A stretch of DNA of 64,000 nt from sequence record PP449093.1. One strand, 5' to 3'. Below are positions 35,919 to 51,680 of this stretch, one piece after another. A program made the position numbers and the translations under genes. The notes beneath the pieces are model-generated. The model ran no database searches. It had not been told where the DNA came from and worked only from the letters and a program-made list of their open reading frames with translations. Source of the stretch: Escherichia coli phage phiS. Position 1 is the first letter of the stretch. Every line of letters starts with the position of its first letter.

Positions 35919-36566
35919 ATGAACTTACAAAAACTACACGACGCAATCATAGAAAAAGCAAAGATGAGAGGAACCGTTGAAGGATATAAGGAAACACATC
36001 ACATTTTACCGCGATCTATGGGTGGCAGTGATGAAGTCGATAACCTGATTGATTTGACAGCAAAAGAACATTTTGTTATTCATCACCTGCTAGCAAAAAT
36101 TCATGGTGGACCTATGGCGCAAGCATTTGGTATGATGTGTTTGGCAAAAAATGCTAAGACCAATAAAAGAGATTATGTTGTTTCGTCTAGGGTATATGAA
36201 CAAGCTAGGGTACTGATATCTGAACAAAGAAAGGGTAAGCCTATGAAAGAAGAAACGCGAAGAAAGATTAGCGAATCTTCAAAGGGTGTATTGAAATCAG
36301 AAGAAACAAAAGCTAAAATGCGTAAACCAAAAACAAAGGAGCACGCGTTAAACATTTCAAAAGCTAGAATGGGAAGTAAAAATCCTATGTTTGGTAAACC
36401 ATCACCAACTAAAGGAATACCACATAGCGAGGAAATGAGAAAGCTGATTGCACAAAGGACAAAGGAAGCAACGATGGCAGATCCTTGTCCGCATTGCGGT
36501 AAAATTACCAATAAAGGCAATGCTCTACGATGGCACTTTGATAACTGTAAAATGAGGAATATGTGA
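35919..36566 (+). CDS. mobE: HNH homing endonuclease (MobE-like) between nrdA and nrdB
   Basis: HNH motif ETHHILPRSMGGSDEVDNLIDLTAKEH; C-terminal NUMOD-like repeats; same location as T4 mobE. Confidence 0.75.
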   Translation: MNLQKLHDAIIEKAKMRGTVEGYKETHHILPRSMGGSDEVDNLIDLTAKEHFVIHHLLAKIHGGPMAQAFGMMCLAKNAKTNKRDYVVSSRVYEQARVLISEQRKGKPMKEETRRKISESSKGVLKSEETKAKMRKPKTKEHALNISKARMGSKNPMFGKPSPTKGIPHSEEMRKLIAQRTKEATMADPCPHCGKITNKGNALRWHFDNCKMRNM

Positions 36567-37760
36567 ATGGGAAATACGGTATTTAATCGTGAACATGTTG
36601 ATATTATGAATGAACCGATGTTTCTGGGTAGCGGTTTAGGTATCGCTCGTTATGATATTCAGCGTCATCAAGTATTTGAAGAATTAATTGAAAAATCTCT
36701 GTCATTTTTCTGGCGTCCAGAAGAGATTTCACTTGCAACTGACCGCATTCAATATCTTAATATGGGTGACGTTGAAAAGCGTTTCTTTACTGAAAACTTG
36801 AAGTATCAGACATTACTTGATTCTATTCAAGGTCGCGCACCGTCCGCAGCATTTGGTCCAATTGTATCTGATCCAACTCTCGATACATGGTTACAAACAT
36901 GGACATTCAGCGAAACGATTCATAGCCGCAGTTATACTCACATTATGCGTAACTGTTTTATTGATCCGGCTAGTGAGTTCGACCAGATCATCGATAACCC
37001 TGCTATCATGAAGCGAGCGGAATCTATCGGGAAATATTATGATGATGTTCTTTATTGGATTCGTAAGTATGAGAATGCAAAAGAAGATCTCCGCTATTGG
37101 GAAGAAGAAGTTCTCCACCACTATTGGGAAGAACGAGACGATCAGACAGAATTAGATGATGCAAGAAGATTTTTTGAAGATACAAAACGAGATCTGATGG
37201 CTTCGATTTATCTGTGTGCACACTGCGTAAATGCACTGGAAGCAATTCGTTTTTATGTGTCCTTTGCATGTACTTTCAGCTTTGCCGAACGTGGTTTACT
37301 GGAAGGTAACGCGAAGATCATGAAATTTATTGCGCGTGATGAACAACTTCACTTAAAAGGCACACAATACATTATTCGTCAATGGCAAACGGGGGTTGAT
37401 GGTGATGAGTGGAAACAGATTGCGGAAGAACTTGAAGGCGAAGCAACGAAAATCTTTCTGGATGTTGTCGAGCAAGAAAAAGAATGGGTAGACCACCTAT
37501 TCGCAATGGGGGCAATTCCTAACCTGTCACCGGAAATTCTGAAAACCTATGTAGAATACCTGGCAGATTCCCGTATGCGCGCCGCCGGACTGAAAAGCCC
37601 GTTTAGTGTTCGTCGTCATCCGTTACCGTGGATGCGTAAATGGTTGAACTCTGACGAAGTACAGAATGCAGCGCAGGAAGTAGAGATTATGTATCTGGTA
37701 TCTCAGGTTAATACCGATTTAACAGACGACGACTACAACCGATTCGGGAAATATCTATGA
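36567..37760 (+). CDS. nrdB: aerobic ribonucleotide reductase small subunit, intron-less
   Basis: 397 aa; class Ia beta motifs (FFWRPEE, NLKYQTLLDSIQGR, WTFSETIHSRSYTHI, NALEAIRFYVSFAC.F.FAERG). Confidence 0.95.
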   Translation: MGNTVFNREHVDIMNEPMFLGSGLGIARYDIQRHQVFEELIEKSLSFFWRPEEISLATDRIQYLNMGDVEKRFFTENLKYQTLLDSIQGRAPSAAFGPIVSDPTLDTWLQTWTFSETIHSRSYTHIMRNCFIDPASEFDQIIDNPAIMKRAESIGKYYDDVLYWIRKYENAKEDLRYWEEEVLHHYWEERDDQTELDDARRFFEDTKRDLMASIYLCAHCVNALEAIRFYVSFACTFSFAERGLLEGNAKIMKFIARDEQLHLKGTQYIIRQWQTGVDGDEWKQIAEELEGEATKIFLDVVEQEKEWVDHLFAMGAIPNLSPEILKTYVEYLADSRMRAAGLKSPFSVRRHPLPWMRKWLNSDEVQNAAQEVEIMYLVSQVNTDLTDDDYNRFGKYL

Positions 37761-38233
37761 TATATTTTGTCGATTTAGATTTTACGATCACAGATCCAAC
37801 GCATCGACTAGCAAAGATGCCAACCGAAAATCTTGATAAAGTCGAGTCGTGGATCGAATATAACAAGGCATGTGGGGGAGATTCCCCCATTTACGATGTA
37901 ATTCGTGTTATTAATGCTCTTTCCGACAACGGGCATTTGATTTACATCCTCACCGGACGAAGTTCACATGCTTACATGGAAACAATTGATTGGTTAATTT
38001 CTAACGGGGTGTGTTTTGATAAAATCTTTATGAGAGGCCGTACCGATTCCCGTAAAGACTATCACATCAAATTAGAGGTAATTAAATCCTTTGATAAAGA
38101 TGAAGTTGTCGGAGTCTTTGAGGATAACCCAGAAGTGATTAAAGTTTTGCGTGAAAATGGTTATCGTGTCTTTGACGTAGGAAATCACAAAGATAAGACG
38201 CGAGCGGATATTGCAAATCACGGTCATGATTAA
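37757..38233 (+). CDS. HAD-superfamily phosphatase (stand-alone, resembles the Pnk phosphatase domain)
   Basis: DLDFT (DxDxT), ILTGR, K, FEDNPEV motifs; aligns by eye with the C-terminal domain of the Pnk at 41735. Confidence 0.6.
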   Translation: MIYFVDLDFTITDPTHRLAKMPTENLDKVESWIEYNKACGGDSPIYDVIRVINALSDNGHLIYILTGRSSHAYMETIDWLISNGVCFDKIFMRGRTDSRKDYHIKLEVIKSFDKDEVVGVFEDNPEVIKVLRENGYRVFDVGNHKDKTRADIANHGHD

Positions 38234-38244
38234 TGTTTGTTCAA

Positions 38245-38270
38245 AGTCGCCCATAGTGGCGACTTTTTTT
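38245..38270 (+). terminator. rho-independent terminator
   Basis: AGTCGCC-CATAGTG-GCGACT followed by TTTTTTT. Confidence 0.7.
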
Positions 38271-38281
38271 GTTATTGGGTG

Positions 38282-38310
38282 TTGACAATCGGATCGTGGT
38301 ATAGCATAAT
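38282..38310 (+). promoter_or_regulatory. early promoter cassette (TTGACA, 17 nt spacer, CATAAT)
   Basis: Conserved GCACCCATCGAAACGGAGGA leader. Confidence 0.65.
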
Positions 38311-38334
38311 GCACCCATCGAAACGGAGGAACAT

Positions 38335-38553
38335 ATGGAAACAGAAGAACAAGTCATTGCATATTTTCATCGTAAAAAGATGAAACTTAGAATCGAAAAA
38401 CAGTACATCAATCACTACATTGACCAAGTTCACTTAACAAGTACACCTTACCTATTCCGGTTGATAAACCCTAGAAAACGGTGGGAGAAGTTGGATAGAA
38501 ACACAAAAATAATTGATAAGCTCACCCAATGGTGGAATGAATACAACAAGTAA
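38335..38553 (+). CDS. hypothetical early protein (72 aa)
   Basis: ORF after promoter cassette. Confidence 0.6.
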   Translation: METEEQVIAYFHRKKMKLRIEKQYINHYIDQVHLTSTPYLFRLINPRKRWEKLDRNTKIIDKLTQWWNEYNK

Positions 38554-38560
38554 AAAGTAG

Positions 38561-38589
38561 TTGACACTGAATAACGGGGGTAGTAAGAT
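38561..38589 (+). promoter_or_regulatory. early promoter cassette with GGGGGTAGTAAGATACTCCC hairpin
   Basis: TTGACA, 17 nt spacer, TAAGAT. Confidence 0.65.
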
Positions 38590-38622
38590 ACTCCCATCGA
38601 AACGAAACAAAGGAGAATCAAA

Positions 38623-38841
38623 ATGAAATTTACTTGCACCGACTCTATCAACAAACACTTTGTAGTGGGCGAAGTATACGAATCTACTACTATTCGTCAA
38701 CGTGACCTGATGGGTCGCCTTTACAATCAGCCAGTATTCATTATTGGTGAAGAATTGTTCTACATTGAAAACCGTCCGTGGGTTGCTTTCAATAAACGAG
38801 GACGCAAGGTAGCAAAATTCGAACTTGTCATTAAAAAGTAG
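38623..38841 (+). CDS. hypothetical early protein (72 aa)
   Basis: ORF after promoter cassette. Confidence 0.6.
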   Translation: MKFTCTDSINKHFVVGEVYESTTIRQRDLMGRLYNQPVFIIGEELFYIENRPWVAFNKRGRKVAKFELVIKK

Positions 38842-38870
38842 TTGACAGCATATCACGGGAGTAGTAAGAT
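38842..38870 (+). promoter_or_regulatory. early promoter cassette with GGGAGTAGTAAGATACTCCC hairpin
   Basis: TTGACA, 17 nt spacer, TAAGAT. Confidence 0.65.
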
Positions 38871-38903
38871 ACTCCCATACCAAAACAACTAAGGAGTATC
38901 AAG

Positions 38904-39302
38904 ATGATTAAATTTCAAACTCGCAAAGACGTTCTGGACTTCGTTAAAGTTTTCGGTTACGCTGCATTGCAACATGCAATGGACAAAATGACCATCTCCC
39001 CAGATCAGACTATGCTGATCCGTATGGTTAAAGCAACCGCCTACAAAAACGACATTACCCTCTCAGAAATCAACGACGGTAATACTGTCCGCGAGGTAAT
39101 TGTTTCTTTCGAATCACCGAAAATTGGCGGTTTTCATACCACGATGTTAGGTGAAATCACTGTCACTGTATACGGGCAAGGTGGCGGAGTGTTTACCGTC
39201 AAAGAAGCAATGGAAAATGGAACGCTGAACAAAGAAAAACTGGAATTTGTCCTGAAAATCATCAAGGAGCGTAACGAAGCTCGCGATATTCTGGAAAGTT
39301 AA
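38904..39302 (+). CDS. hypothetical early protein (132 aa)
   Basis: ORF after promoter cassette. Confidence 0.6.
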   Translation: MIKFQTRKDVLDFVKVFGYAALQHAMDKMTISPDQTMLIRMVKATAYKNDITLSEINDGNTVREVIVSFESPKIGGFHTTMLGEITVTVYGQGGGVFTVKEAMENGTLNKEKLEFVLKIIKERNEARDILES

Positions 39303-39309
39303 TAAGGTG

Positions 39310-39335
39310 GGCGGGAGAAATCCCGCCTTTGTTGT
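39310..39335 (+). terminator. terminator-like hairpin
   Basis: GGCGGGA-GAAA-TCCCGCC followed by TTTGTTGT. Confidence 0.55.
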
Positions 39336-39352
39336 GACGTGAGGAAAGGATA

Positions 39353-39814
39353 ATGATTAATGAGCTAATAGAAAACTATGGATTCGTTAAATATTCATGT
39401 TTAGAGTGTAAAGATGGTGATGTGATTCTACCGCCTCAGAAGAACCGTTTAAATGTTCTTTACGCTATTGTTGTTGATGATGAACTGGTATACATTGGTC
39501 AGACTGTTAATCTCAGAAAGCGGATCAATTATTACCGGACTAGCATTAACAGACAAACACCAACAGCGGATACTCGCAAGAGTAAGAATATTCATAAGGC
39601 GCTAGAGGAAGGTAAGACAGTAACATTCTATTACCGACAGTGCTTTGAGTTGTACATCGAGAATCCAACGGGTAAGGATATTATAAGCACTGCCGATATC
39701 GAAGAACCTGTTTTGATCACCAAATTTAAACCAGAATGGAACACAAATTATGTCAACAAAAGAAAACAACAAAAAAGTTTTAGCATTGTTCAAAAATCTG
39801 ATGGTACTATGTGA
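39353..39814 (+). CDS. denA: endonuclease II
   Basis: Resembles T4 DenA (YAI...DELVYIG.T.NLRKRINYYRT.INR, EG..V.FY.RQCF). Confidence 0.85.
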   Translation: MINELIENYGFVKYSCLECKDGDVILPPQKNRLNVLYAIVVDDELVYIGQTVNLRKRINYYRTSINRQTPTADTRKSKNIHKALEEGKTVTFYYRQCFELYIENPTGKDIISTADIEEPVLITKFKPEWNTNYVNKRKQQKSFSIVQKSDGTM

Positions 39815-40919
39815 CGGATCTGATACGTTCTATTACAAAGATGAAATTACGGCGATGCAAACCCGTATGCGCATTTTTAGCTATCTGTACTTGAGCAAAC
39901 CGGAAATGTGGAATAAACCAGATGCGTTAGAGTGTCGCGGGATCATGTTTGAAATTGACGATAAAGGTCGTCCGGTCCGCATCGCATCTCGTCCTATGGA
40001 GAAGTTTTTTAATTTGGGTGAGAATGATCGCGCTCGCTTTAAGCCGGAAGATGTGGAAATGGTCATGGACAAAATGGACGGTAGTCTAGTAAGTACATAC
40101 ATTGATAACGGCTATGTTCAGTTGAAGTCTAAAGCGGCCTTGTACTCAAGCCAGGCAGAGAGAGCAAACGGTCTTCTGTATTCAGAGAAGTATGCGGATC
40201 TACGCGCTAAGATTGCTGATATTGGGTCTGATTATACTTTCAACTTTGAATATACAGCGCCCAGCAACCGAATTGTTGTAGAATATTCTGAACCGTCGCT
40301 AACACTTCTGAATGTACGCCATAACGTCACAGGAGAGTATGTACCGCATCAAATGCTATTCGCTGATGCAATCCTACGTCCTCATCTGGTAAATGCGTTA
40401 CAGGTTGATTCAGCGCGTTTTAGCAATATTCTTGATGAAGTTCGGATCGCAGAAGGTATCGAAGGAATTGTTGCACGCACTAAAGACGGTCAAATGTTCA
40501 AAGTGAAGAGTGAATGGTATATTGGTGTGCATAACATTAAAAACACATCGATGTTTCCTAATAACCTGATCTACTATGTAGTAGAAAGTGAAACCGATGA
40601 TTTGCGTGCTGCATATGAAGGCGAACCGGAAGCACTGGAACGAATCGAGCTATTCGAGGAAGCATTCAGGTCTATTCTTCGCAATGCCTTCACGACAGCA
40701 ACAGAATTTTATAACGCACACGCGGGAGAAGACAGAAAGACATATGCATCCAATGCGACTATCGAATCACGTAAACATGGTGATGCACAAGCATATATTT
40801 TCATGTGTCTGATGATTGCATTTGATGGTCTTGATTATGACCGTATTCTGGATTCAATGAAAACTTACTATCTACGGAATTATAAGAAACTGATTCCGGC
40901 TGATAAGATTGATTGGTAA
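39750..40919 (+). CDS. rnlA: RNA ligase 1 (T4 gene 63 type)
   Basis: RIFSY.Y, PDALECRGIMFE, RIASRPMEKFFNL.EN, KxDGSLVSTY nucleotidyl-transferase motif; exact start uncertain, overlaps denA. Confidence 0.8.
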   Translation: MSTKENNKKVLALFKNLMVLCDGSDTFYYKDEITAMQTRMRIFSYLYLSKPEMWNKPDALECRGIMFEIDDKGRPVRIASRPMEKFFNLGENDRARFKPEDVEMVMDKMDGSLVSTYIDNGYVQLKSKAALYSSQAERANGLLYSEKYADLRAKIADIGSDYTFNFEYTAPSNRIVVEYSEPSLTLLNVRHNVTGEYVPHQMLFADAILRPHLVNALQVDSARFSNILDEVRIAEGIEGIVARTKDGQMFKVKSEWYIGVHNIKNTSMFPNNLIYYVVESETDDLRAAYEGEPEALERIELFEEAFRSILRNAFTTATEFYNAHAGEDRKTYASNATIESRKHGDAQAYIFMCLMIAFDGLDYDRILDSMKTYYLRNYKKLIPADKIDW

Positions 40920-40925
40920 TAATAA

Positions 40926-40948
40926 GCGGGGCTAGTTCCCGCCTTTTG
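40926..40948 (+). terminator. terminator-like hairpin
   Basis: GCGGG-GCTAGTT-CCCGC followed by CTTTTGTC. Confidence 0.5.
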
Positions 40949-40962
40949 TCGTTGGGGGTAAT

Positions 40963-41286
40963 ATGTCAAAGCTGATATACATTGTTATCATCTCTGTCTT
41001 GCTAGGGGTAGGTGGTAATATGTGGTGGGAAAATAAAAAGGAGGTAGATCGACTGAATCAGGAATTTACAGAGTATAAGAAAAAGACAGATGAAAAGATG
41101 AAGATTGTAGACTCGCTACAAAAGGAGATGTACGGAATAAGAACTAAGTTTGCAGAAGAACAAAACAAAGCAATGAAAGACGCTACACGAGGCTATGTAG
41201 TAGCACAAAAACCCAAGTTGGTAGAGAAACAGCTTAATGACTCATTTAAGGAGTTTACCGAAGAATTAAAGGAGGCTACTAAATGA
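40963..41286 (+). CDS. inner-membrane spanin candidate (Rz-like)
   Basis: N-terminal TM segment then coiled-coil-rich periplasmic region; immediately upstream of a lipoprotein ORF and pseT, as T4 pseT.3. Confidence 0.55.
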   Translation: MSKLIYIVIISVLLGVGGNMWWENKKEVDRLNQEFTEYKKKTDEKMKIVDSLQKEMYGIRTKFAEEQNKAMKDATRGYVVAQKPKLVEKQLNDSFKEFTEELKEATK

Positions 41287-41735
41287 GCATAGAAATATTG
41301 CATACACAAGATCAGATAAGCAATTTTAATCTGGTTGATTATCTGGGGATAGGTGCAAGCATTATTATCCTGATGGTGTTTTCAATTTTCGTGATACACT
41401 GGATGTTTAAGAAAGCACATAAGAATTTTCAGACCGCCATAATCCATGTCTTCGCTGTGCCTATTGTATTTGCGCTTTCTTCGTGTACACTGGACCATTA
41501 TTCACAGGAACCGAAATTACATCCTCCACTACCAGCACCAATAGAAAAAGTTGACATTGACCTGAAAGTGGATACAATAGACGGTAAACCTAGAGTTTCT
41601 ATGTCGTGGGAGGACTCCCAAAAATTCAGAGTCTGGCTTGCGGATATTAAGAGATATACACTTGAAAGTAAGTTGATCATGTGTTATTATCGAAAAGAAC
41701 TTAATGAGGAACGGTGCAAACCGAAGGAGAAATAA
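41283..41735 (+). CDS. outer-membrane spanin candidate (lipoprotein; alternative start 41403)
   Basis: Internal Met at 41403 gives signal peptide plus lipobox ALSSC and a Pro-rich mature region; the longer frame from 41283 adds an N-terminal TM segment. Confidence 0.5.
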   Translation: MSIEILHTQDQISNFNLVDYLGIGASIIILMVFSIFVIHWMFKKAHKNFQTAIIHVFAVPIVFALSSCTLDHYSQEPKLHPPLPAPIEKVDIDLKVDTIDGKPRVSMSWEDSQKFRVWLADIKRYTLESKLIMCYYRKELNEERCKPKEK

Positions 41736-42613: not shown

Positions 42614-42816
42614 TGTTTACCGATAAAATCAAGCAATTAGGCGAAGCACTTGCTAAACGTGGTTTTAGTGTTGATATTGAACCAGCGCCAGTTATGCCGT
42701 TTAGCGATGAACGTCGCAGTGTATATGTCATCATGAGAAATAATCATGGTGTGAATACATTCAATGTAAAACAGTATAGCGACGGATCAGTAGAATACTT
42801 TCGCGTATACGGTTAA
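42613..42816 (+). CDS. hypothetical protein (67 aa)
   Basis: TAATG overlap with pseT. Confidence 0.5.
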   Translation: MFTDKIKQLGEALAKRGFSVDIEPAPVMPFSDERRSVYVIMRNNHGVNTFNVKQYSDGSVEYFRVYG

Positions 42817-43344: not shown

Positions 43345-43657
43345 ACAAATTGATAATATCGCACTTCGTGAAGCACTCAAGAAAATGTTTTCGGTCGGTA
43401 CTCACTCTTTGCAGTTTACTAAGAAAGATGGTACTGTCCGTGAGATGATCGCCACGCGAGATCCGGCACTGATGCCGTTTGAAACATACGAAAAGTGGTT
43501 AGTTCCTAATGTTGAAAAACCGCGTAAAGAATCAGAAACATCTTTGCCAGTATATGAAATTGCAGTTGAAGGTTTCCGTAGTTTTGGGCTTGATAGTCTG
43601 ATTAATGTAGATGGATTGACTCCAGCGCAGATCATCGAAATGTACGGTGGTAGTTGA
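43337..43657 (+). CDS. hypothetical protein (106 aa)
   Basis: ATG inside ORF-track 43331..43657 (track start TTG). Confidence 0.5.
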   Translation: MTEQIDNIALREALKKMFSVGTHSLQFTKKDGTVREMIATRDPALMPFETYEKWLVPNVEKPRKESETSLPVYEIAVEGFRSFGLDSLINVDGLTPAQIIEMYGGS

Positions 43658-43659
43658 CA

Positions 43660-44271
43660 ATGGAAATAAAAGATGATAATATCATATTACCAGCACCGGA
43701 AGAATGGAGACAAGCTGTAGGTTATCCGTGGTATGAAATCTCTAATTATGGTAGATTGAGATCTATTGACCGAAATATCGAATTTTATAGAGAAGTTTCT
43801 CCTGGTAATATTAAGCTAGTAAAACAAAAACGTGCTGGTAAAATAATAAAACCGATTTTAGACCGATATGGGTATTATTATTCAACACTGTCAAAACAAA
43901 AAGACAATGGTAAAATCTCAGTTAAAGCCGAAAAGATACATCGACTTGTAGCAAATGCATTTCTAGGAGACGTTACCGGACTGGAGGTTAACCACATCAA
44001 TGGTGTAAAAACCTGCAATTATGTGTGGAATTTAGAAATAGTAACCTTACTAGAAAATATGAGACATTCATTTAGAACTGGACTCAATAACAATGTTGGT
44101 GAAAACCACTCACGGGCAAAACTGACAAATGCGCAAGTCGAAGAAATAATGCGACTCAAAGGAAAGGTTAAGAAGCAAATTATAGCCGATATGTTTAATG
44201 TTTCTTATTGTTGTATAGCGCAAATACATTCTGGTCTGCGGCGAAATCCAAAGGTCGCTAAATATAAATAA
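43660..44271 (+). CDS. HNH homing endonuclease (NUMOD4/HNH_3-like)
   Basis: WYEISNYGRLRS and VNHINGVKTCNYVWNLEIVT motifs. Confidence 0.7.
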   Translation: MEIKDDNIILPAPEEWRQAVGYPWYEISNYGRLRSIDRNIEFYREVSPGNIKLVKQKRAGKIIKPILDRYGYYYSTLSKQKDNGKISVKAEKIHRLVANAFLGDVTGLEVNHINGVKTCNYVWNLEIVTLLENMRHSFRTGLNNNVGENHSRAKLTNAQVEEIMRLKGKVKKQIIADMFNVSYCCIAQIHSGLRRNPKVAKYK

Positions 44272-44307
44272 TTTACTATTGAACTGAATTGAAGAGGTAA
44301 GAAAATT

Positions 44308-44631
44308 ATGACCGTTAAAACTCCTAAAGCACTTGGTGACTATGTGATCATTGAAGCTAAAGCGGAAAGCGCAGGGACCGAAGTAAAGAGCGACTTTGGT
44401 ATTATCATCGAACAAAAACGAACTATGGGAGAGATTCCTTTAGTCGGTAAGATTATTGATATCGGTGATAACGTTGATAAAGAATTGCTGGGTAAGACTG
44501 TATTGCTTCCTCATGGGAAACTTAATAAAGTTCCTCATCCAGACGTTATTAACGGCGTTAAGAAGGAAGAAGAGATCGACCTGAAATGGACTGTAACACA
44601 CAAACAGAATATTGTGGTAGTTTACGGTTAA
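44308..44631 (+). CDS. 31: co-chaperonin GroES analog gp31
   Basis: 107-aa ORF at the T4 gene 31 locus (between cd and ligase); GroES-like pattern (GDYVII, mobile-loop-like segment). Confidence 0.65.
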   Translation: MTVKTPKALGDYVIIEAKAESAGTEVKSDFGIIIEQKRTMGEIPLVGKIIDIGDNVDKELLGKTVLLPHGKLNKVPHPDVINGVKKEEEIDLKWTVTHKQNIVVVYG

Positions 44632-44878: not shown

Positions 44879-45347
44879 AATTGATATCTATGCGGGTGGA
44901 CCTTATCCATCGGGTGAATTGAGTAATTTCAATAAAAGACCATTCCGTCTATTTGGTTGTGATATTAACAGCACAGAAGGATTTTTACAGGGGCTAAGAT
45001 TTAAGAACCCTCAGAGACAAAGAGAAATCTTTTTGATGCACGGTGGCAAAGCAAAAAGAACCGGAAGAACTGAAAAGATTGAGAATCACATGTTATATTT
45101 TCAGGGTCGCCAGATTCATCGAATGAGTGAGCATTATTACAGACTGGTACATCTGGCATTTGTTACGATGGCACGGAATAACCCAGAATTTTGTAAAGCA
45201 TTACTCGCTACAGGAAATAAGAAATTACGTCATAGCATAGGTGGAACTGATCCGTTAAAGACTATATTGACTGAATCGGAATTTTGTAGTATCCTCAATG
45301 ATATTCGTGAACGTTTAACAAAACGAGGTGAAAATGTCAATTCTTAA
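44868..45347 (+). CDS. NADAR (YbiA/DUF1768)-like protein
   Basis: GELSNF, STEGFLQGLRF and ALLATG...L.H segments resemble the NADAR fold family; by-eye assignment. Confidence 0.45.
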   Translation: MTSEIDIYAGGPYPSGELSNFNKRPFRLFGCDINSTEGFLQGLRFKNPQRQREIFLMHGGKAKRTGRTEKIENHMLYFQGRQIHRMSEHYYRLVHLAFVTMARNNPEFCKALLATGNKKLRHSIGGTDPLKTILTESEFCSILNDIRERLTKRGENVNS

Positions 45348-46830
45348 TATCATTAACCAGCTTGCAGCGACCGACAAAACATCGCTGAAAGAAAAGATCC
45401 TGAAAGAATCCGCAAGTAATGAAACTCTGAAAGAATGCTTTTATCTGGCATATTGCAAACAGGTTACGTTTGGCGTAAAGAAATACGATAAACCATCGCG
45501 TTATTCGTCTGTATTGTCTTTATCCGGTGCATTACAGGTCTTTAAAAATAAACTTGCCACGCGTCAAGTAACTGGTAATGCAGCATTACAGCTAGTTACC
45601 GATACTCTGACTTGCTTGTCAGAGGATGATGCTAAAGTTGCAATGATGGTCCTGAATCGTGATCTGGAGTGTGGTTGTTCCGCTACCACTGCAAACAAGG
45701 TATGGAAGAAACTGATCCCCCAGCAACCGTGCCACCTTGCATCGTCATGTTCTGATAAGACTATTGCCAATATCAAATATCCGGCGTATGCACAACTTAA
45801 AAGCGATGGCGCTCGTGGTATGGCTGATATTGACGGGGAAACATTAGCAATCTATACCCGCTCAGGTAATACCTATCAAGGGCTTGATGATTTGTTTGCG
45901 GTTTTAGAGCGTCTACGAGGCCGTGGAATTGTTCTAGATGGCGAATTGGTATATATGCCTACCCTTTCGCAAACACCAGCGCAGAACTTCGTTGAGAGCG
46001 TTTATGATGGTACTCTGTCATGGATATTTGAAGAAGAGGAAATGCCATTAACGCCAGTAGCGGAAGCAGTGAAAGAATCCGTTGTTGCAGATCGTCAGAC
46101 CGGAAATGGTATCCTCAACAAATCACTTAAAGGAACTATTCCAAAAGAAGAAGCCCAATGTATTGTTTACACTGTCTGGGATGTTATCGACCGTGATGTG
46201 TATTACGGAAACGAGAAAGCAACGAAGCAATATAAAGATCGATTCGAAGAACTAAAACAGATTGTTGAAGAACTTAACGATCCTCGTGTTCAGATAATCG
46301 AAAATACTGTAGTTAACAATATCGATGAAGCTCGCGAAGTATATCATCGCTATGTAAACATGGGATTAGAAGGCATTATCCTTAAAAATTTACATGGTGT
46401 ATTTGAAGATCGTCGCAGTAAAGATCAGGTTAAATTTAAAGAAGTGATTGACTTCGACGCGGAAATTGTTGATGTATATCCGCATAGTAAAGATCCTAAT
46501 AAGGTAGGCGGTTTTACTGTCCGTAGTGCGTGCGGACGAATGATGACTAACACCGGATCGGGATTGACCGACACCACAACCGAAAAAGGCGATGATGGTA
46601 TTGAACGTGTGATTCCGTTTGACCGTCGAAATGAACTTGACCGAGAAATGTTATGGGCTGACCGTCATAACCTGATTGGAAAAGTCATTGAGATGACATG
46701 CAACGGGTATATCCGCAGCAAATCACGTAAAGAAGATGAACCGGAGTTCTCTTTATTTCTCCCAATCATAAAACGTATTCGCTACGACAAGACCACTGCA
46801 AATACAGTAAAAGAGGTATTCGATGTGTGA
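45334..46830 (+). CDS. 30: ATP-dependent DNA ligase gp30
   Basis: Resembles T4 DNA ligase (AQLKSDGAR adenylation motif, LDGELVY, SLKGTI.KEEAQC, EGIILKN, KFKEVID.D, GGF). Confidence 0.9.
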   Translation: MSILNIINQLAATDKTSLKEKILKESASNETLKECFYLAYCKQVTFGVKKYDKPSRYSSVLSLSGALQVFKNKLATRQVTGNAALQLVTDTLTCLSEDDAKVAMMVLNRDLECGCSATTANKVWKKLIPQQPCHLASSCSDKTIANIKYPAYAQLKSDGARGMADIDGETLAIYTRSGNTYQGLDDLFAVLERLRGRGIVLDGELVYMPTLSQTPAQNFVESVYDGTLSWIFEEEEMPLTPVAEAVKESVVADRQTGNGILNKSLKGTIPKEEAQCIVYTVWDVIDRDVYYGNEKATKQYKDRFEELKQIVEELNDPRVQIIENTVVNNIDEAREVYHRYVNMGLEGIILKNLHGVFEDRRSKDQVKFKEVIDFDAEIVDVYPHSKDPNKVGGFTVRSACGRMMTNTGSGLTDTTTEKGDDGIERVIPFDRRNELDREMLWADRHNLIGKVIEMTCNGYIRSKSRKEDEPEFSLFLPIIKRIRYDKTTANTVKEVFDV

Positions 46831-47299
46831 TAATGAAGGGGCGAAAGCCCCTAAACCTAAAAAATTGTCAAAGAAAGAGCAACGCCAGATCCTGAAAATG
46901 AAATATGGTGGACGTTGTGCCTATTGTGGCGAGGAACTAGGGGATCGCTGGCACGCAGACCACATCAAACCAGTATTGCGACGCTCAAAGGTAGTCTATG
47001 ATGAAAATGGACGAATTGCCCGTAATGATGATGGATCGTGGAAGTATAAGGTTGTAGGAATGCATAAACCGGAGCATGATATACTTGATAACATGAATCC
47101 GGCGTGTGTGCAATGCAATCTTTACAAAAGCTGTATGGGCTTAGAATACTGGCGTAAGTGTATACGCGAGAACTTCCAGAAGTACATTCAGCACAATATG
47201 GGATTGCGAGCGGCTAAACGCTTTGGCTTGCTGTCAATTCATGACCAGCCAGTAGAATTTTATTTCGAAAAGTACGAGCGCGAGCATCAAGAAAAATAA
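46823..47299 (+). CDS. HNH endonuclease
   Basis: CAYCGEEL...HADHIKP...NMNPACVQCN. Confidence 0.7.
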   Translation: MCDNEGAKAPKPKKLSKKEQRQILKMKYGGRCAYCGEELGDRWHADHIKPVLRRSKVVYDENGRIARNDDGSWKYKVVGMHKPEHDILDNMNPACVQCNLYKSCMGLEYWRKCIRENFQKYIQHNMGLRAAKRFGLLSIHDQPVEFYFEKYEREHQEK

Positions 47300-47313
47300 T
47301 TCAAAAAAAGTTG

Positions 47314-47342
47314 TTGACAGGGGATCACCGATCCCCTATACT
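47314..47342 (+). promoter_or_regulatory. early promoter with palindromic spacer GGGGATCACCGATCCCC
   Basis: TTGACA, 17-nt perfect dyad spacer containing two GATC, TATACT. Confidence 0.65.
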
Positions 47343-47387
47343 ACACACATCAAAACGAAACACACTTTCTTAAACGGAGAATCAAAA

Positions 47388-47555
47388 ATGTTCCAGACTA
47401 AAGCAGAATGCGAAGCATACATTGTAGCAAACCACGGTGAAGACTACCTGAAATTCGATATCGTAGTAGCACAGAAGATCACCGGAATGGTTGCAAAATA
47501 TCTGGGTGTTAAAGAAGGTTACTATCCAAGCAACGCACCAGAAATTAACAAATAA
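47388..47555 (+). CDS. hypothetical early protein (55 aa), paralog of 50645..50812
   Basis: MFQTKAECEAYIVANHGEDYLKFDIVVAQKI... against MFETKAACEAYIIETYGEDYLKFDIVVAQKI... Confidence 0.55.
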   Translation: MFQTKAECEAYIVANHGEDYLKFDIVVAQKITGMVAKYLGVKEGYYPSNAPEINK

Positions 47556-47558
47556 TAG

Positions 47559-47587
47559 TTGACAATGATTAAAGGGAGTAGTAAGAT
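47559..47587 (+). promoter_or_regulatory. early promoter cassette with GGGAGTAGTAAGATACTCCC hairpin
   Basis: TTGACA, 17 nt spacer, TAAGAT. Confidence 0.65.
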
Positions 47588-47619
47588 ACTCCCATAAAGA
47601 CAACAAACGGAGAATCAAA

Positions 47620-47799
47620 ATGAAAGCTATCGAAGTTCAGAAGTACATGGAACTCATCATTGAAGGTAAAGCACATACAGTATTGACTACCCACGTAGGA
47701 TATGATAAAAATGTGCATATGCTGGTAGACAATATCGGTTGGATGAAGTTTAATCCTAACGAGAATGTACAAGCTCAAGAAATGACCATCCCTTTCTAA
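47620..47799 (+). CDS. hypothetical early protein (59 aa)
   Basis: ATG after GGAGAATCAAA; below ORF-track cutoff. Confidence 0.5.
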   Translation: MKAIEVQKYMELIIEGKAHTVLTTHVGYDKNVHMLVDNIGWMKFNPNENVQAQEMTIPF

Positions 47800-47811
47800 G
47801 AGGAATATATT

Positions 47812-48090
47812 ATGATGCGAATTACTGCAACGCTGGATAAGACACACAAAGAAAGATTTTTCGGTATGATCTTAAAAACGCCGATTTTCGATAATTACCT
47901 TTATGTTGACTATGACGGTCACATTAGCTATAAATGTAAAAATGATATTCGTGATTCCTTTGGTGATAAATCACAAGCCGATATTCATGACCACTGGTGG
48001 AACCATGACGAACCTTTACGAGTTATCGCAGTTGATGTAAAAACAACAAAAGAAGCTGATAAGGTAGTGAATGATTATGAGCAAATTTAA
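47812..48090 (+). CDS. hypothetical protein (92 aa), member of a 4-gene paralog family
   Basis: Shared Y.YVD..L.I.Y ... HW ... V.A.D pattern with 48491, 48816 and 49513 ORFs. Confidence 0.55.
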   Translation: MMRITATLDKTHKERFFGMILKTPIFDNYLYVDYDGHISYKCKNDIRDSFGDKSQADIHDHWWNHDEPLRVIAVDVKTTKEADKVVNDYEQI

Positions 48091-48286
48091 AGAATACAAA
48101 GCATATCAACAGATTTTGCGAGTATACGCACCAGAGTTCGCCGAAAAGATGATGGAAGATGCATCAAAATGCCCGTCCTTTTCTGGAAACAAAAACCATT
48201 ATTCGACTGGTATTGTGTCATGGAAAGAAACCGCATATACTCAACAATGGATAGAGGTTTTCTCAAAAACTCTTGATTGGTGTTAA
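48071..48286 (+). CDS. hypothetical protein (71 aa), MSKFK family paralog 1
   Basis: MSKFKEYKAY...MMEDA...GIVSWKETAY. Confidence 0.5.
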   Translation: MIMSKFKEYKAYQQILRVYAPEFAEKMMEDASKCPSFSGNKNHYSTGIVSWKETAYTQQWIEVFSKTLDWC

Positions 48287-48288
48287 TT

Positions 48289-48504
48289 ATGAGCAAATTT
48301 AAAGATTATCGAGCATATAAAGCGATCTGCGATATATTCGATGAAAAGACCGCTCATGCAATGATGGAAGATGCAGAACAATATGAATCATTCGTCAATT
48401 CCAAAGATTGCACAGTAAACGGGATTGTGTGCTGGAAAGATACAAAGTATGAAGAAAAATGGATTACTGTGTATTACGGAGAACTAGAATATGAAATTAA
48501 CTAA
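48289..48504 (+). CDS. hypothetical protein (71 aa), MSKFK family paralog 2
   Basis: MSKFKDYRAY...MMEDA...GIVCWKDTKY. Confidence 0.5.
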   Translation: MSKFKDYRAYKAICDIFDEKTAHAMMEDAEQYESFVNSKDCTVNGIVCWKDTKYEEKWITVYYGELEYEIN

Positions 48505-48811
48505 AAAGATTTTCCCAGAATTGCGTAACTGTCTGTTATTGGTTACTGAATATAAGCCGTATGCGATCTACTTGTATGTTGATGAAAATCTGAAAATCCG
48601 TTACTATGATTATACGTCTCCAGTGATGAAATCATTTGCTCACTCGATAGCAAATAACTGTATGAATCACAATCATTGGGTATCAGAAACGGATGACGAT
48701 GCGTCAGAAGTTGTAGTGGTTGCATGGAATCTATCACCAGCGGAAGCAGATCAAGCACGCATTAAGCATTATGCGAAAAACAATTGGTTTGACCTTATAA
48801 GTGAGGACTAA
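48491..48811 (+). CDS. hypothetical protein (106 aa), 4-gene paralog family
   Basis: YLYVDENLKIRYYDY...HNHW...VVAWN. Confidence 0.55.
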   Translation: MKLTKKIFPELRNCLLLVTEYKPYAIYLYVDENLKIRYYDYTSPVMKSFAHSIANNCMNHNHWVSETDDDASEVVVVAWNLSPAEADQARIKHYAKNNWFDLISED

Positions 48812-48815
48812 TATT

Positions 48816-49094
48816 ATGTTCAAAGTAGGTGATAAGTTTATTCTTAGTCGTGATATTCTACCTAATCTGAAAGGTTGTATCATCAATCCTAGTAAAAATT
48901 CATGGTTTTATCTGTTTATCGACGACAAACTGAATGTACGCGCCGAATATAAAGAAGGTCTTCGCACTGGCCTCGGTTTCTTTAACGATCACGATCATAG
49001 CCATTGGCTAAACGGTGGATTCGAAGCAACGGTGCTCGCGGTTGATGTGACCTACACAAACATCATAGAAAAATATCAAAAAATTATTTTATAA
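48816..49094 (+). CDS. hypothetical protein (92 aa), 4-gene paralog family
   Basis: FYLFIDDKLNVRAEY...HSHW...VLAVD; ATG after GTGAGGACTAATATT. Confidence 0.55.
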   Translation: MFKVGDKFILSRDILPNLKGCIINPSKNSWFYLFIDDKLNVRAEYKEGLRTGLGFFNDHDHSHWLNGGFEATVLAVDVTYTNIIEKYQKIIL

Positions 49095-49100
49095 AAAGTG

Positions 49101-49129
49101 TTGACATAAGATCGGGTGTATAGCATAAT
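49101..49129 (+). promoter_or_regulatory. early promoter cassette with GGGTGTAT..ATACACCC dyad around the -10
   Basis: TTGACA, 17 nt spacer, CATAAT. Confidence 0.65.
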
Positions 49130-49175
49130 ACACCCATCGAAACGAGATACACTTTCTAACTAGGAGAATCAAATT

Positions 49176-49463
49176 ATGGCATACATCACCATCACTCTGA
49201 AAGTTAACAAATTTGCTCACGCTGCACACGAAACCGATAATGCAATCCGTAACAACAAGTTCGCACGTCTGGTACGCGATGCGGTAGCTAAAGAGTTCAA
49301 CTTCAAATTTGCCGATGGTAAAGTTATCACTAAATGGACTCATGACGGCGAAACTAAAGTAGAACTTGCTGACAACTTCGCAAATCAGGAATATGCACAC
49401 CGTCGCATTAATGAAATTATCAGCGATGAACTCTACTACGGTGTACAGGAAGGACTGTTTTAA
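49176..49463 (+). CDS. hypothetical early protein (95 aa)
   Basis: ATG after GGAGAATCAAATT. Confidence 0.6.
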   Translation: MAYITITLKVNKFAHAAHETDNAIRNNKFARLVRDAVAKEFNFKFADGKVITKWTHDGETKVELADNFANQEYAHRRINEIISDELYYGVQEGLF

Positions 49464-49512
49464 TATATGGGGCGTTAAGCCACTTTTAATCTATCTGAAT
49501 GAGGATATCACT

Positions 49513-49821
49513 ATGAAAAATCTTGTAGTTGAATTTACCCGCGAGAATTTACCACAATTACGCAACTCTCTGCTTAAACTAGAGAACAGTAATTATGATG
49601 TATATTTTTACATCACAGAAGACCTAGAGATCCTTTACGCAGATTATCCAGGTCCGATCCGTACTTTCGAAACAGCATCAAAGTATAAAAATGTTTACGG
49701 TCATGAGCACTGGTTACGAGAAAACCCAGGTCGCAAGAAAGCACGCGTTAAAGTGCTGGCGATTGACATAACACCAGCATACGCCGACCGGATTGCACAG
49801 AATGATTATTTGTCTAAATGA
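49513..49821 (+). CDS. hypothetical protein (102 aa), 4-gene paralog family
   Basis: VYFYITEDLEILYADY...HEHW...VLAID; ATG after GAGGATATCACT. Confidence 0.55.
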   Translation: MKNLVVEFTRENLPQLRNSLLKLENSNYDVYFYITEDLEILYADYPGPIRTFETASKYKNVYGHEHWLRENPGRKKARVKVLAIDITPAYADRIAQNDYLSK

Positions 49822-49828
49822 TTTTATT

Positions 49829-49857
49829 AGCCGACCTTAGCGTCGGCTTTTTTATTG
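49829..49857 (+). terminator. rho-independent terminator
   Basis: AGCCGAC-CTTAGC-GTCGGCT followed by TTTTTTATT. Confidence 0.7.
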
Positions 49858-49877
49858 CATAAAATTTTAAAAAAGAA

Positions 49878-49906
49878 TTGACACCAGATCACGCCTATAG
49901 CATAAA
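49878..49906 (+). promoter_or_regulatory. early promoter cassette (TTGACA, 17 nt spacer, CATAAA)
   Basis: Conserved ATACACCCATCAAAACGAGATACC leader. Confidence 0.6.
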
Positions 49907-49947
49907 TACACCCATCAAAACGAGATACCACTTAGGAGAATCAAACA

Positions 49948-50217
49948 ATGGCACTGACTAAAACCACTACCAACTTTGCAAAACGTCACGGCTTCGACCT
50001 TGAAATCAATAGCTTTAACGATTACACCCTTCTGTGTGTATATGAAATCGAAAATGATTGCGAGTGGATGTTCAGCTATCGCGTAAACGAAGACGGATCT
50101 TTCACTTGGAACGGAAATATCTATCTTGCACAGGAAGTAAAAGAAGAACTTCCGGCGACCATCAAAGATGAGAAACATTTACGTCAAGTTTTAAAATTTA
50201 TTTCTGAAAATATCTAA
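49948..50217 (+). CDS. hypothetical early protein (89 aa)
   Basis: ATG after GGAGAATCAAACA. Confidence 0.6.
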   Translation: MALTKTTTNFAKRHGFDLEINSFNDYTLLCVYEIENDCEWMFSYRVNEDGSFTWNGNIYLAQEVKEELPATIKDEKHLRQVLKFISENI

Positions 50218-50225
50218 AAAAGTTG

Positions 50226-50254
50226 TTGACACTAAAGTAAGAACATAGCATAAT
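50226..50254 (+). promoter_or_regulatory. early promoter cassette (TTGACA, 17 nt spacer, CATAAT)
   Basis: AAAAAGTTGTTGACA ... CATAATACACCCATACCGAAACGAA. Confidence 0.65.
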
Positions 50255-50287
50255 ACACCCATACCGAAACGAACTGGAGAATCAAAA

Positions 50288-50569
50288 ATGAAATTCATCA
50301 AAGCAACCGAAATCCTGAAAAACAAAGAAGCATACATCGGAAACATCGTTGGTATGAACATTCGCGGCGCTGGTAGCCAGTGGACCAAACTGGTTGATGT
50401 TAAAGCTAAAGGCGATAAAATTGAGTTCACTGTAAAAATGCTTACGCATAACGCACATATGGGTATCAAGACAAAAACGATGGCAGCAGATAAAAGCATT
50501 AACTATCAGGATCTGGGTGATTGGCTGAACTGGTGCAAAATGCACAACATCGAAACTAATCACGAATAA
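50288..50569 (+). CDS. hypothetical early protein (93 aa)
   Basis: ATG after GGAGAATCAAAA. Confidence 0.6.
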   Translation: MKFIKATEILKNKEAYIGNIVGMNIRGAGSQWTKLVDVKAKGDKIEFTVKMLTHNAHMGIKTKTMAADKSINYQDLGDWLNWCKMHNIETNHE

Positions 50570-50582
50570 TTTAAAAAAGTTG

Positions 50583-50611
50583 TTGACGGGGATCGGGAGA
50601 TCCCCTATAAT
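50583..50611 (+). promoter_or_regulatory. early promoter with palindromic spacer GGGGATCGGGAGATCCCC
   Basis: TTGACG, 17 nt GC-rich dyad spacer with two GATC, TATAAT. Confidence 0.65.
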
Positions 50612-50644
50612 ACACACATACCGAAACGAAATAGGAGAATCAAA

Positions 50645-50812
50645 ATGTTCGAGACTAAAGCAGCATGTGAAGCATATATCATTGAAACCTACGGTGAAGA
50701 TTATCTGAAATTTGACATTGTAGTAGCACAGAAGATTGTAGGGATGGTTGCGAAATACCTGGGTGTTAAAGAAGGTTACTATCCTAGCAACGCACCAGAA
50801 ATTAACAAATAA
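50645..50812 (+). CDS. hypothetical early protein (55 aa), paralog of 47388..47555
   Basis: About 85 percent identical to the 47388 product by eye; same promoter class. Confidence 0.55.
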   Translation: MFETKAACEAYIIETYGEDYLKFDIVVAQKIVGMVAKYLGVKEGYYPSNAPEINK

Positions 50813-50826
50813 TTTTATAAAAAGTG

Positions 50827-50855
50827 TTGACAGGGGAGGATAACTCCCCTACAAT
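50827..50855 (+). promoter_or_regulatory. early promoter with palindromic spacer GGGGAGGATAACTCCCC
   Basis: TTGACA, 17 nt dyad spacer, TACAAT. Confidence 0.6.
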
Positions 50856-50895
50856 ACAACCATCAAAACGAGATACCACTTAGGAGAATCAAACA

Positions 50896-51147
50896 ATGGC
50901 TAACATCGAAACCGCAAAGAAAATCGCTAAAGACCTGAACGTTAAAGGCTTCCGTAAACTGAAATTACAGCGTGTACGCTACACCATCGGCAAACAGTGC
51001 TCTTTCATGAGCGAAGAAATTGCTAACAGCCTGATTGATAACCTGATTGCGGCTGGCTGGGAAGTTGCGGATCTGAAAACTTGCCGCGAACTGGCTAACA
51101 AAGGTCTTTTAGATTCTGTTACTATCAAACCAATGGGGGCAGCGTGA
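50896..51147 (+). CDS. hypothetical early protein (83 aa)
   Basis: ATG after GGAGAATCAAACA. Confidence 0.6.
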   Translation: MANIETAKKIAKDLNVKGFRKLKLQRVRYTIGKQCSFMSEEIANSLIDNLIAAGWEVADLKTCRELANKGLLDSVTIKPMGAA

Positions 51148-51680
51148 ACAATATAGACTGGAAGAAATACTTTAATTATGATCCTGATACTGGTATTCTT
51201 ACATGGAAGGAGAGAACAGATATACACCCATCAAGAATAAAACAATGGAATGCTGCATGGGCTGGAAAGGAGGTCGGGTCACTAGGAAGTGGTGGACGTT
51301 ATCTTGAATCGTCAATAAAAATTGACGGTAAAATTATTAACTACAAAGTTCATCGAGTATGTTATATTATCCACAATGGACCTATACCAGAAGGATATGA
51401 AGTAGACCATATTAATCACATTAAGACAGATAATAGAGCGGTGAATTTTGAACTTAAGACACATCAAGACAACATGAGGAATCAAACAAAATCTAAAAAG
51501 AATACAAGCGGACACAGTGGAATACATAAAAACAAATACAATAAATGGGTAGTTAGAATTGGCAGCGGTCGTCGTGGTGATAGAAAATATCTAGGATGCT
51601 TCGATACATTAGAAGAAGCTATAGAGGTTAGAACCAAAGCAGAAAGAGAGCATGGCTATCATGAAAACCACGGAAAGTAA
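51144..51680 (+). CDS. HNH homing endonuclease with AP2-like DNA-binding domain
   Basis: VDHINHIKTDNRAVN HNH motif; C-terminal SGHSGIHKNKYNKWVVRI...YLGCFDTLEEA; GTG start overlapping the upstream stop. Confidence 0.7.
   Translation: MNNIDWKKYFNYDPDTGILTWKERTDIHPSRIKQWNAAWAGKEVGSLGSGGRYLESSIKIDGKIINYKVHRVCYIIHNGPIPEGYEVDHINHIKTDNRAVNFELKTHQDNMRNQTKSKKNTSGHSGIHKNKYNKWVVRIGSGRRGDRKYLGCFDTLEEAIEVRTKAEREHGYHENHGK

Follow-up and report, generated by a model that had tools for sequence, protein, structure and literature searches.

Free-standing endonuclease genes and linked allele tracts point to probable intronless homing in the Krischvirus phage phiS

Here we analyzed a 64,000-nucleotide stretch of the genome of Escherichia coli phage phiS (record PP449093.1; hereafter the window), which contains five nuclease genes between positions 29187 and 51680. 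These are a zinc-finger nuclease gene next to gene 32 and four HNH genes, which we call HEG1 to HEG4 (HEG, homing endonuclease gene). The initial annotation, made from the sequence alone, had placed HNH-type open reading frames (ORFs) at 35919, 43660, 46823, and 51144. All four are present with domain or profile matches, and the endonuclease genes are free-standing, as had been proposed, and their reading frames are intact. Four of the five (all except HEG3) are polymorphic among close relatives, and these four probably spread by "intronless homing", in which a stretch of the neighboring gene would be copied along with the nuclease gene.

A megablast search with positions 29000-52000 as the query returned 60 phage records, nearly all from Escherichia and Shigella Krischvirus phages (RB49, phi1, JSE, GEC-3S, and others), at 95-97% identity and 70-89% coverage. 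The window is a segment of a Krischvirus (RB49-like) coliphage genome. On the + strand, gene 32 is followed by a 414-amino-acid ORF (the zinc-finger nuclease gene at 29187), frd, td, nrdA, three small ORFs, HEG1, and nrdB. Further downstream, the order is denA, rnlA, pseT, cd, 31.1, HEG2, 31, 30.3, 30 (ligase), and HEG3. A series of small ORFs separates HEG3 from HEG4, which is followed by a methyltransferase-like and then a GmrSD_N-like gene. The coordinates of the features discussed here are given in Table 1. All counts below are per Krischvirus record, with 58 records for HEG1, HEG3, and HEG4 and 59 for HEG2 and gene 31; they include phylogenetically related phages that are not independent, and some phages (JSE, KFS-EC, ECD7) are each represented by two records. 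Insertion boundaries were taken from BLAST coordinates; MAFFT misplaced the upstream flank of the HEG-less sequences.

Table 1. Nuclease genes, adjoining tracts, and related features of the phiS window.
Feature	Position	Strand	Description
Zinc-finger nuclease gene	29187..30431	+	Downstream of gene 32; four CapR/treble-clef modules, C-terminal T5orf172-type domain (amino acids ~300-414)
Divergent tract	30432..30830	+	Downstream of the 29187 nuclease gene; covers ORF 30479-30808
td (thymidylate synthase)	31738..32958	+	Pfam PF00303, E = 4.9e-85, in two stretches; 132-amino-acid in-frame insert
HEG1 insertion, MobE-like HNH + NUMOD3	35867..36578 (coding sequence 35919-36566)	+	Between the nrdA-distal small ORFs and nrdB
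nrdB, uninterrupted	36567..37760	+	Pfam PF00268; allele class of the 5' 320 bp varies with what occupies the upstream site
HEG2 insertion, NUMOD4 + HNH_3	43645..44262 (coding sequence 43660-44271)	+	Between gene 31.1 and gene 31
Co-conversion-like tract	44263..44530	+	5' two-thirds of gene 31 (44308-44631)
HEG3, small HNH protein	46823..47299	+	8-bp overlap with the end of the DNA ligase gene
Hyperplastic small-ORF region	47294..50876	+	PeSL-like cassettes at 47294-47363, 49081-49150, 50563-50632, and 50807-50876
HEG4 insertion, HNH_3 + AP2-like	51149..51678 (coding sequence 51144-51680, GTG start)	+	Upstream of the methyltransferase-like gene
Co-conversion-like tract	51679..52078	+	5' part of the methyltransferase-like gene (51652-52386)

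HEG2 contains NUMOD4 (E = 2.4e-11) and HNH_3 (E = 8e-9) domains in Pfam, and its best match among solved structures is I-HmuI (1U3E, E = 0.0015). It is predicted to be an I-HmuI-like HNH_3/NUMOD endonuclease. Relative to RB49, PTE-Eco09, and JSE, it is a clean 618-bp insertion, and 11 of the 59 records carry it (PHB13, E26, G37-3, KFS-EC in two records, G2494, ECD7 in two records, FL20, pEJ01, and ELT4). The tract of ~260 bp that begins directly after the insertion is 98.4% identical to HEG2-containing relatives and 87.5-89.4% identical to HEG2-less relatives, and it ends abruptly near 44530. Both the upstream flank and the sequence past 44632 are 96-99% identical in carriers and non-carriers alike. 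With gene 31 as the sole query, identity is 97.9-98.4% in 11/11 HEG2-containing records versus 85.6-92.7% in 48/48 records that lack it, such that the gene 31 allele of phiS is fully linked to HEG2 (11/11 vs 0/48). The two allele types differ at 33-40 nucleotides, with 22-28 synonymous versus five non-synonymous codon changes. Substitutions cluster most densely around 44388-44420, which makes this part of gene 31 a first candidate for the cleavage site. The HEG2-less phage UPWr_E1 (83325-83706 of its record) has an intermediate gene 31 allele at 92.7% identity, compared to ~87% for other HEG2-less phages and ~98% for carriers; this allele may reflect recombination or a conversion tract of partial length.

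HEG4 has a similar arrangement upstream of the methyltransferase-like gene. Its HNH_3 domain matches Pfam at E = 3e-17, and residues 124-163 weakly match the AP2 domain of ERF096 (E = 0.06), with no Pfam AP2 match at E ≤ 0.01. HEG4 may belong to the AP2-HNH class of endonucleases, although the AP2 match is weak. None of the 58 Krischvirus records contains HEG4; the site is either empty or holds a 246-bp ORF. At the DNA level, its closest relatives (70% identity) are HNH genes from ~50-kb coliphages and Salmonella phages. Two short metagenome contigs carry, at the same site, an allele with 95% amino acid identity. Within the downstream tract, identity to four HEG4-less relatives falls to 75-88%, compared to 98-100% in the upstream flank and 92-100% past 52079. 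The two independent HEG4-containing contigs have this 400-bp tract at 91-96% identity. The phiS allele of the methyltransferase-like gene carries ~16 amino acid changes and a new N-terminus. Both the HEG2 and HEG4 tracts are perfectly linked to the presence of the HEG, and they resemble the co-conversion signature that would be expected from homing.

HEG1 likely belongs to the Mob family, based on its similarity to T4 MobE. The catalytic motif HH..N..H lies at residues 33-64 of the ORF (pattern ETHHILPRS..GGSD.VDNL..L...EH..IH), and the segment ETHHILPRSMGGSDEVDNLIDLTAKEHFVIH can be aligned with the HNH domains of solved structures. Its match to the Pfam HNH model is sub-threshold (E = 0.011), with stronger matches to NUMOD3 (Pfam, E = 3.5e-9) and to phrog_655, "homing endonuclease" (E = 3.5e-57). 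HEG1 is 49% identical to T4 MobE over 120 amino acids (E = 1e-36), in an alignment that begins at the Met encoded at 35919, and the T4 annotation places mobE in the same nrdA/nrdB interval. Seven of the 58 records contain HEG1 (SSG23, SFHK24, PTE-Eco09, JSE in two records, FL15, and AV108), and most others have an empty site. The insertion puts 712 bp in place of 4 bp of RB49 and rewrites the N-terminus of nrdB from MS.. to MGNT.., with a new start. The following part of nrdB (36579-36900) is 96.3-98.4% identical in 7/7 HEG1-containing records and at most 95.0% identical in 43/48 empty-site records. All seven carriers are within the top 12 of the 58 records for identity over this region (hypergeometric p ~3e-6, our own estimate, which ignores relatedness).

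The same nrdA/nrdB gap holds other sequences in some relatives. G2494 has an HNH gene without similarity to HEG1 (positions 2671-3210 of its compared locus), and G5211 and G37-3 likewise have extra sequence in this gap. In these three records, which carry the unrelated HNH, identity over nrdB 36579-36900 is 85.7-86.3%. As these three phages share a third, ~86%-identical nrdB 5' allele, at least three states of occupancy exist at the site, and a different nrdB allele accompanies each of them. Two further differences were observed within nrdB. A nine-amino-acid indel, YWEEEVLHH, at 37090-37120 (residues ~177-185) is a partial duplication of the following YWEE and, among the loci compared, is common only to the window and G2494. 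In PHB13, the segment corresponding to 36901-37300 is only 78% identical.

The protein encoded at 29187 matches CapR (E = 8.5e-11) and DUF4379 (E = 2.9e-4) in Pfam. Based on both its sequence and an AlphaFold2 model, it consists of four Cys/His-rich modules followed by a tail of ~110 amino acids. This tail is nearly invariant in an alignment of 30 homologues (G..Y[IV]Q...KFG[IV]T....R...Q...S...H...E..IK...DG[YW]TET); the zinc-finger part is ~40% identical among them, with 3-7 modules per allele. A Foldseek search of the full-length 414-amino-acid model against the PDB gave noise (multi-domain, pTM 0.39), and the C-terminal domain was re-modelled alone. It is predicted to adopt a GIY-YIG fold, in which the Tyr, Arg, and Glu residues are conserved. 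Direct Pfam and NCBIfam scans gave no match for this domain, and the T5orf172 threshold was not reached. Among 35 aligned homologues, PF10544 (T5orf172) matches six, with a best E of 4.9e-5, and MUG113 matches 12; tblastn also located homologues in T5 and T5-like phages. There is no match to PF01541, the canonical N-terminal GIY-YIG domain, and the nuclease domain here is C-terminal. The GIY-YIG-like candidate of the initial annotation is thus borne out as a GIY-YIG-fold domain of the T5orf172 type, found at the C-terminus and without a Pfam GIY-YIG match, and we regard the gene as encoding a putative T5orf172-CapR-type endonuclease.

This locus is highly variable. The full-length ORF occurs only in phage kaaroe (92%), other relatives have parts of it or none, and JSE has an empty site downstream of gene 32. 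A tail of at least 60% identity is encoded in ~23 phage records. At the DNA level, the part coding for the nuclease domain (30200-30399) is 84-94% identical, and the zinc-finger part has no detectable similarity within the genus. The divergent tract downstream of the gene is 68-88% identical to PTE-Eco09, RB49, and JSE, versus 95-100% further away. Elsewhere in the JSE (65904-66218) and ECD7 (64571-64876) records, the best match to the T5orf172-type domain is a 34-40% identical paralogue, which indicates that Krischviruses carry this nuclease family at more than one site. Two low-identity patches nearby have no adjacent nuclease gene. One is in the 5' part of gene 32 (28100-28199), at 81% identity to PTE-Eco09, RB49, and JSE, and the other is in frd (31000-31200), at 73-87% to PTE-Eco09 and RB49 and 99-100% to JSE. 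Both are short and sharply bounded, with neighboring sequence at 96-100%, and appear to be further mosaic tracts.

HEG3 differs from the other four genes in its distribution. Its protein matches HNH (PF01844, E = 4.9e-6) and phrog_2118 (E = 1.3e-54) and has the motif CxxC...HADH...N...CxxCN, with the HNH residues between CxxC pairs; profile scans gave no NUMOD, AP2, or helix-turn-helix match that would indicate a DNA-binding module. HEG3 corresponds to RB49 ORF212c (PMC1524935). It is present in all 58 records at the same position with 96-98.5% identity, so its distribution is not sporadic and it is fixed in the genus. Among T4-like phages it is found only in Krischvirus, and other homologues, with no more than 44% identity, come from temperate phages and small siphophages, in which they are often located close to a genome end. 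Terminase-associated HNH proteins are located near phage genome ends. We interpret HEG3 either as a HEG that became fixed long ago or as a nuclease that has been domesticated. Because it is found in all 58 genomes, it marks no recent event and is not evidence of recent shuffling.

The 29187 ORF, HEG1, HEG2, and HEG4, on the other hand, are probably free-standing HEGs that spread by intronless homing. During co-infection, the enzyme would cut the HEG-less allele of a nearby gene, and double-strand-break repair would copy the HEG together with an adjacent donor stretch into the recipient. The carrier's own allele would be protected by the substitutions in that stretch. The likely targets would be nrdB for HEG1 by homology to T4 MobE, gene 31 for HEG2 and the methyltransferase-like gene for HEG4 by linkage, and either the small ORF 30479-30808 or gene 32 for the 29187 nuclease. 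We infer cleavage, target sites, and directionality from the sequence comparisons. Homing appears to be the best explanation because these features match those documented for the free-standing endonucleases of T4, which cut a neighboring conserved gene hundreds of bp away and cause co-conversion and marker exclusion (PMC2988022). Repair of the break in T4 uses the HEG-containing genome as the template (PMC2988022).

Several other properties of the genes were compared. The HEG copies of all carriers are intact, and synonymous changes far exceed non-synonymous ones. The HEG1- and HEG2-containing record sets are disjoint, and none of the deposited relatives combines HEG1, HEG2, and HEG4. The start of HEG3 overlaps the stop codon of the ligase gene, and the GTG of HEG4 likewise overlaps the stop codon before it; a GAGG-type ribosome-binding site precedes both HEG1 and the 29187 ORF. 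These start contexts are compatible with promoter-less cassettes read from upstream transcripts, and many T4 HEGs have the same arrangement (PMC2988022).

Some observations weigh against homing as an explanation for all of these genes. The link between HEG1 and nrdB is imperfect; the HEG1-type nrdB 5' allele is also found in five records without HEG1, and for this reason the link is weaker than those of the HEG2 and HEG4 tracts. HEG3 is fixed and has no recognizable DNA-binding module. HEG4 lies at the edge of a region with repeated early-promoter/stem-loop cassettes (PeSLs), which are a documented alternative route to indels (PMC2839356). The target genes are suggested by linkage, the linkage counts are phylogenetically non-independent, and HEG-containing phages could share a tract through common descent of a recombinant block.

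We also considered a more speculative possibility, in which the 29187 locus is a cassette-switching, "reprogrammable" nuclease gene and HEG3 is a domesticated nuclease with its own function. Taken jointly, these two proposals are doubtful. The part coding for the C-terminal nuclease and gene 32 would serve as recombination anchors, between which zinc-finger arrays would be exchanged among co-infecting Krischviruses. If true, cassette switching would produce lineage-specific cleavage specificity for phage-versus-phage exclusion.

Alternatively, the nucleases could be passive cargo, exchanged between co-infecting Krischviruses by ordinary recombination, homologous or illegitimate (for example, via PeSLs), and merely located in recombination-prone spots. 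The small-ORF region between HEG3 and HEG4 speaks for this explanation. It has indels relative to RB49, and a promoter scan identified four ~70-nt PeSL-like copies (repeat family D2), each with TTGACA, a GC-rich hairpin, and a TATAMT -10 box, that flank variable ORFs. Arbiol et al. associated PeSLs with RB49/phi1 indels (PMC2839356), and many non-nuclease ORFs in the 47.3-51.1 kb interval vary among relatives as well. HEG4 lies 270 bp past the last repeat, at a site where other phages have the non-nuclease 246-bp ORF. The PeSL cassettes may explain the turnover of small ORFs in this region and could have helped place HEG4. However, no PeSL repeats flank HEG1, HEG2, or the 29187 ORF, and the variable or inserted genes at these sites are nucleases with DNA-binding modules. 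The tracts are also one-sided, always downstream, starting exactly at the HEG and ending abruptly inside a conserved gene, a pattern that fits gene conversion started by a break and not exchange between flanking repeats. We therefore consider passive transfer quite unlikely as a general explanation. A 172-nt direct repeat (47385-47556 and 50642-50813) was also observed and, together with the PeSL copies, delimits the variable small ORFs.

Some or all of the nucleases, above all HEG3, could instead be domesticated and serve the phage in competitor exclusion, degradation of host or satellite DNA, or regulation. For HEG3, the presence in every record, the overlap with the ligase stop, the mostly synonymous change, the lack of a DNA-binding module, and the frequent location of its distant homologues close to the ends of siphophage and temperate phage genomes are all consistent with such a role, and CapR and Odn are precedents for domesticated HEG domains (PMC8096241, PMC10055350). 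Even so, no positive evidence points to any specific HEG3 function. The sporadic distribution and linked tracts of HEG1, HEG2, HEG4, and the 29187 ORF favor selfish spread, which fits better than a needed function because most relatives do without these four genes. Domestication as the overall explanation is very unlikely. Finally, selection on gene 31 or the methyltransferase-like gene (for example, for co-chaperonin alleles suited to different host GroEL proteins) could maintain the tracts with the HEGs hitch-hiking, but although the gene 31 alleles differ at five residues (D29S, F30M, D54E, N55T, L72M) and the methyltransferase-like alleles at ~16, this is highly implausible because most changes are synonymous in gene 31, and the tracts start precisely at the HEG boundary and recur at independent loci with unrelated downstream genes.

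With homing as the preferred reading for four of the genes, the proposal in the initial annotation that endonuclease genes mark recent shuffling stands in part. Comparison of insertion sites with relatives showed HEG1, HEG2, and HEG4 to be sporadic and the 29187 ORF to be hypervariable, but HEG3 occupies the same position in every related phage. "Recent" is also relative here; HEG1 and HEG2 are 3-4.5% diverged from their copies in other phages, which slightly exceeds the divergence of core genes. The same annotation had set a high endonuclease load against the lack of introns in td and nrdB. Of the 22.5 kb from 29187 to 51680, the five nuclease genes account for 3.5 kb, or about 16%, and in T4, endonucleases make up 11% of the coding potential of the whole genome (PMC2988022). 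Such a load is high by the standards of the RB49 group, although it is not without precedent. Both td and nrdB are indeed intron-free. Each is a single ORF with a full-length Pfam match, and the T4 exon junctions (td residues 313|314 and nrdB residues ~234|236; tblastn against the T4 exons for td) are crossed without a break. Rfam returned no RNA-family match, and no group I intron, across the whole window. The contrast between load and introns is nevertheless not special, as no RB49-group phage examined has introns in these genes (PMC1524935).

The td gene itself contains an in-frame insert at 32089-32484 (residues 118-249) that neither T4 Td nor the Pfam thymidylate synthase profile contains; it falls at profile position ~108. 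Among 1.8 billion cluster representatives, the insert was found only in ~10 other long thymidylate synthases (288-537 amino acids), where its position is the same; it never occurred as a separate protein. We considered whether it could be what is left of a mobile element, for example an intein or the DNA-binding domain of a HEG. There was no profile match and all homologues are in thymidylate synthases, so this idea was rejected. In E26, the annotation upstream of nrdA (positions 1-70 of the compared locus) lists a hypothetical protein instead of td, which suggests, from annotation only, that td is missing or replaced in that phage.

For the other 54 ORFs of the window, there is no HNH, GIY-YIG, or LAGLIDADG domain among the 25 of 26 families listed. 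The ORF at 52681-53235 matches the GmrSD_N restriction-endonuclease N-terminal domain (E = 4.7e-20), and two ORFs, at 53588-55639, match ADP-ribosyltransferase exoenzymes and are Alt/ModA-like. One of the 54 has a Thoeris anti-defence Tad2-like Pfam match (E = 3.4e-6), and ten candidate ORFs were negative.

All of the elements described here are of known kinds, and T4-type intronless homing is well known. The finding is real but ordinary, and it extends current understanding rather than changing it. What is specific to phiS is the combination of HEG1, HEG2, and HEG4, the unusually clean tracts in gene 31 and the methyltransferase-like gene, and the hypervariable T5orf172-type locus. The window appears to offer a clean natural case outside T4, in which free-standing endonuclease genes lie exactly at the edges of seemingly imported tracts in genomes that are otherwise 97-98% identical. 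It also names enzyme/target pairs that can be tested (HEG2/gene 31, HEG4/methyltransferase-like gene, and HEG1/nrdB) and reveals a hypervariable zinc-finger nuclease family of the T5orf172 type in a T4-type genus. For phage-therapy cocktails with Krischviruses, such genes would predict which markers are lost or gained in mixed infections.

The closest known counterpart of HEG1 is T4 mobE, which lies between nrdA and nrdB and targets nrdB (PMC2988022). Both have the same HH..N..H motif, occupy the same interval directly upstream of nrdB, and are sporadic among relatives. HEG1 is longer than MobE (215 vs 141 amino acids) due to an extra C-terminal extension containing NUMOD3, and it abuts nrdB directly and rewrites the start-codon region. 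Unlike in T4, there is no nrdB intron or I-TevIII here for HEG1 to mobilize in trans. The alternative occupants of this site recall SegH and Hef, which, according to the citation of Sandegren 2005 in PMC2988022, replace mobC and mobE in T4-related phages. In that cited case, as with HEG1 and the HNH genes of G2494, G5211, and G37-3, unrelated endonuclease genes are found at one intergenic site, although Krischvirus is another phage genus and other endonuclease families are involved.

HEG2 resembles I-HmuI-type enzymes in its NUMOD4 and HNH_3 domains and best structural match, but both HEG2 and HEG4 are free-standing, whereas I-HmuI is intron-encoded. HEG4, with HNH_3 followed by a weakly matching AP2-like segment (E = 0.06), resembles the AP2-HNH class, which includes IPA-HNH of ICP1 and RB49 ORF040c, a gene located elsewhere in the RB49 genome (PMC1524935). 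The nearest DNA relatives of HEG4 are in ~50-kb, siphophage-sized coliphages rather than in T4-like phages.

The 29187 ORF shares with T4 segG its position beside gene 32, a nuclease domain of the GIY-YIG superfamily, and divergent flanking sequence. Seg proteins have a canonical N-terminal GIY-YIG domain (PF01541), however, and none was detected in the 29187 protein. A stricter analogy of position was considered and dropped: in the T4 annotation, segG is located in the 59/32 interval, upstream of gene 32, and the 29187 ORF is downstream. The 29187 ORF also resembles the T5orf172-CapR HEGs of ICP1, T5-like, and other phages (Netter 2021, Barth 2023), which have repeated zinc fingers and are located at recombination boundaries (PMC10055350, PMC8096241). 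Like these, the 29187 protein has repeated N-terminal CapR/DUF723/DUF4379 modules as "beads on a string", a predicted C-terminal T5orf172-type domain of the GIY-YIG superfamily, shuffled repeat arrays, and an essential gene as its neighbor (PMC10055350). It differs in falling below the Pfam T5orf172 threshold and in belonging to a T4-type phage, T4 itself having no T5orf172 genes (PMC10055350), and its locus is extremely variable within a single genus.

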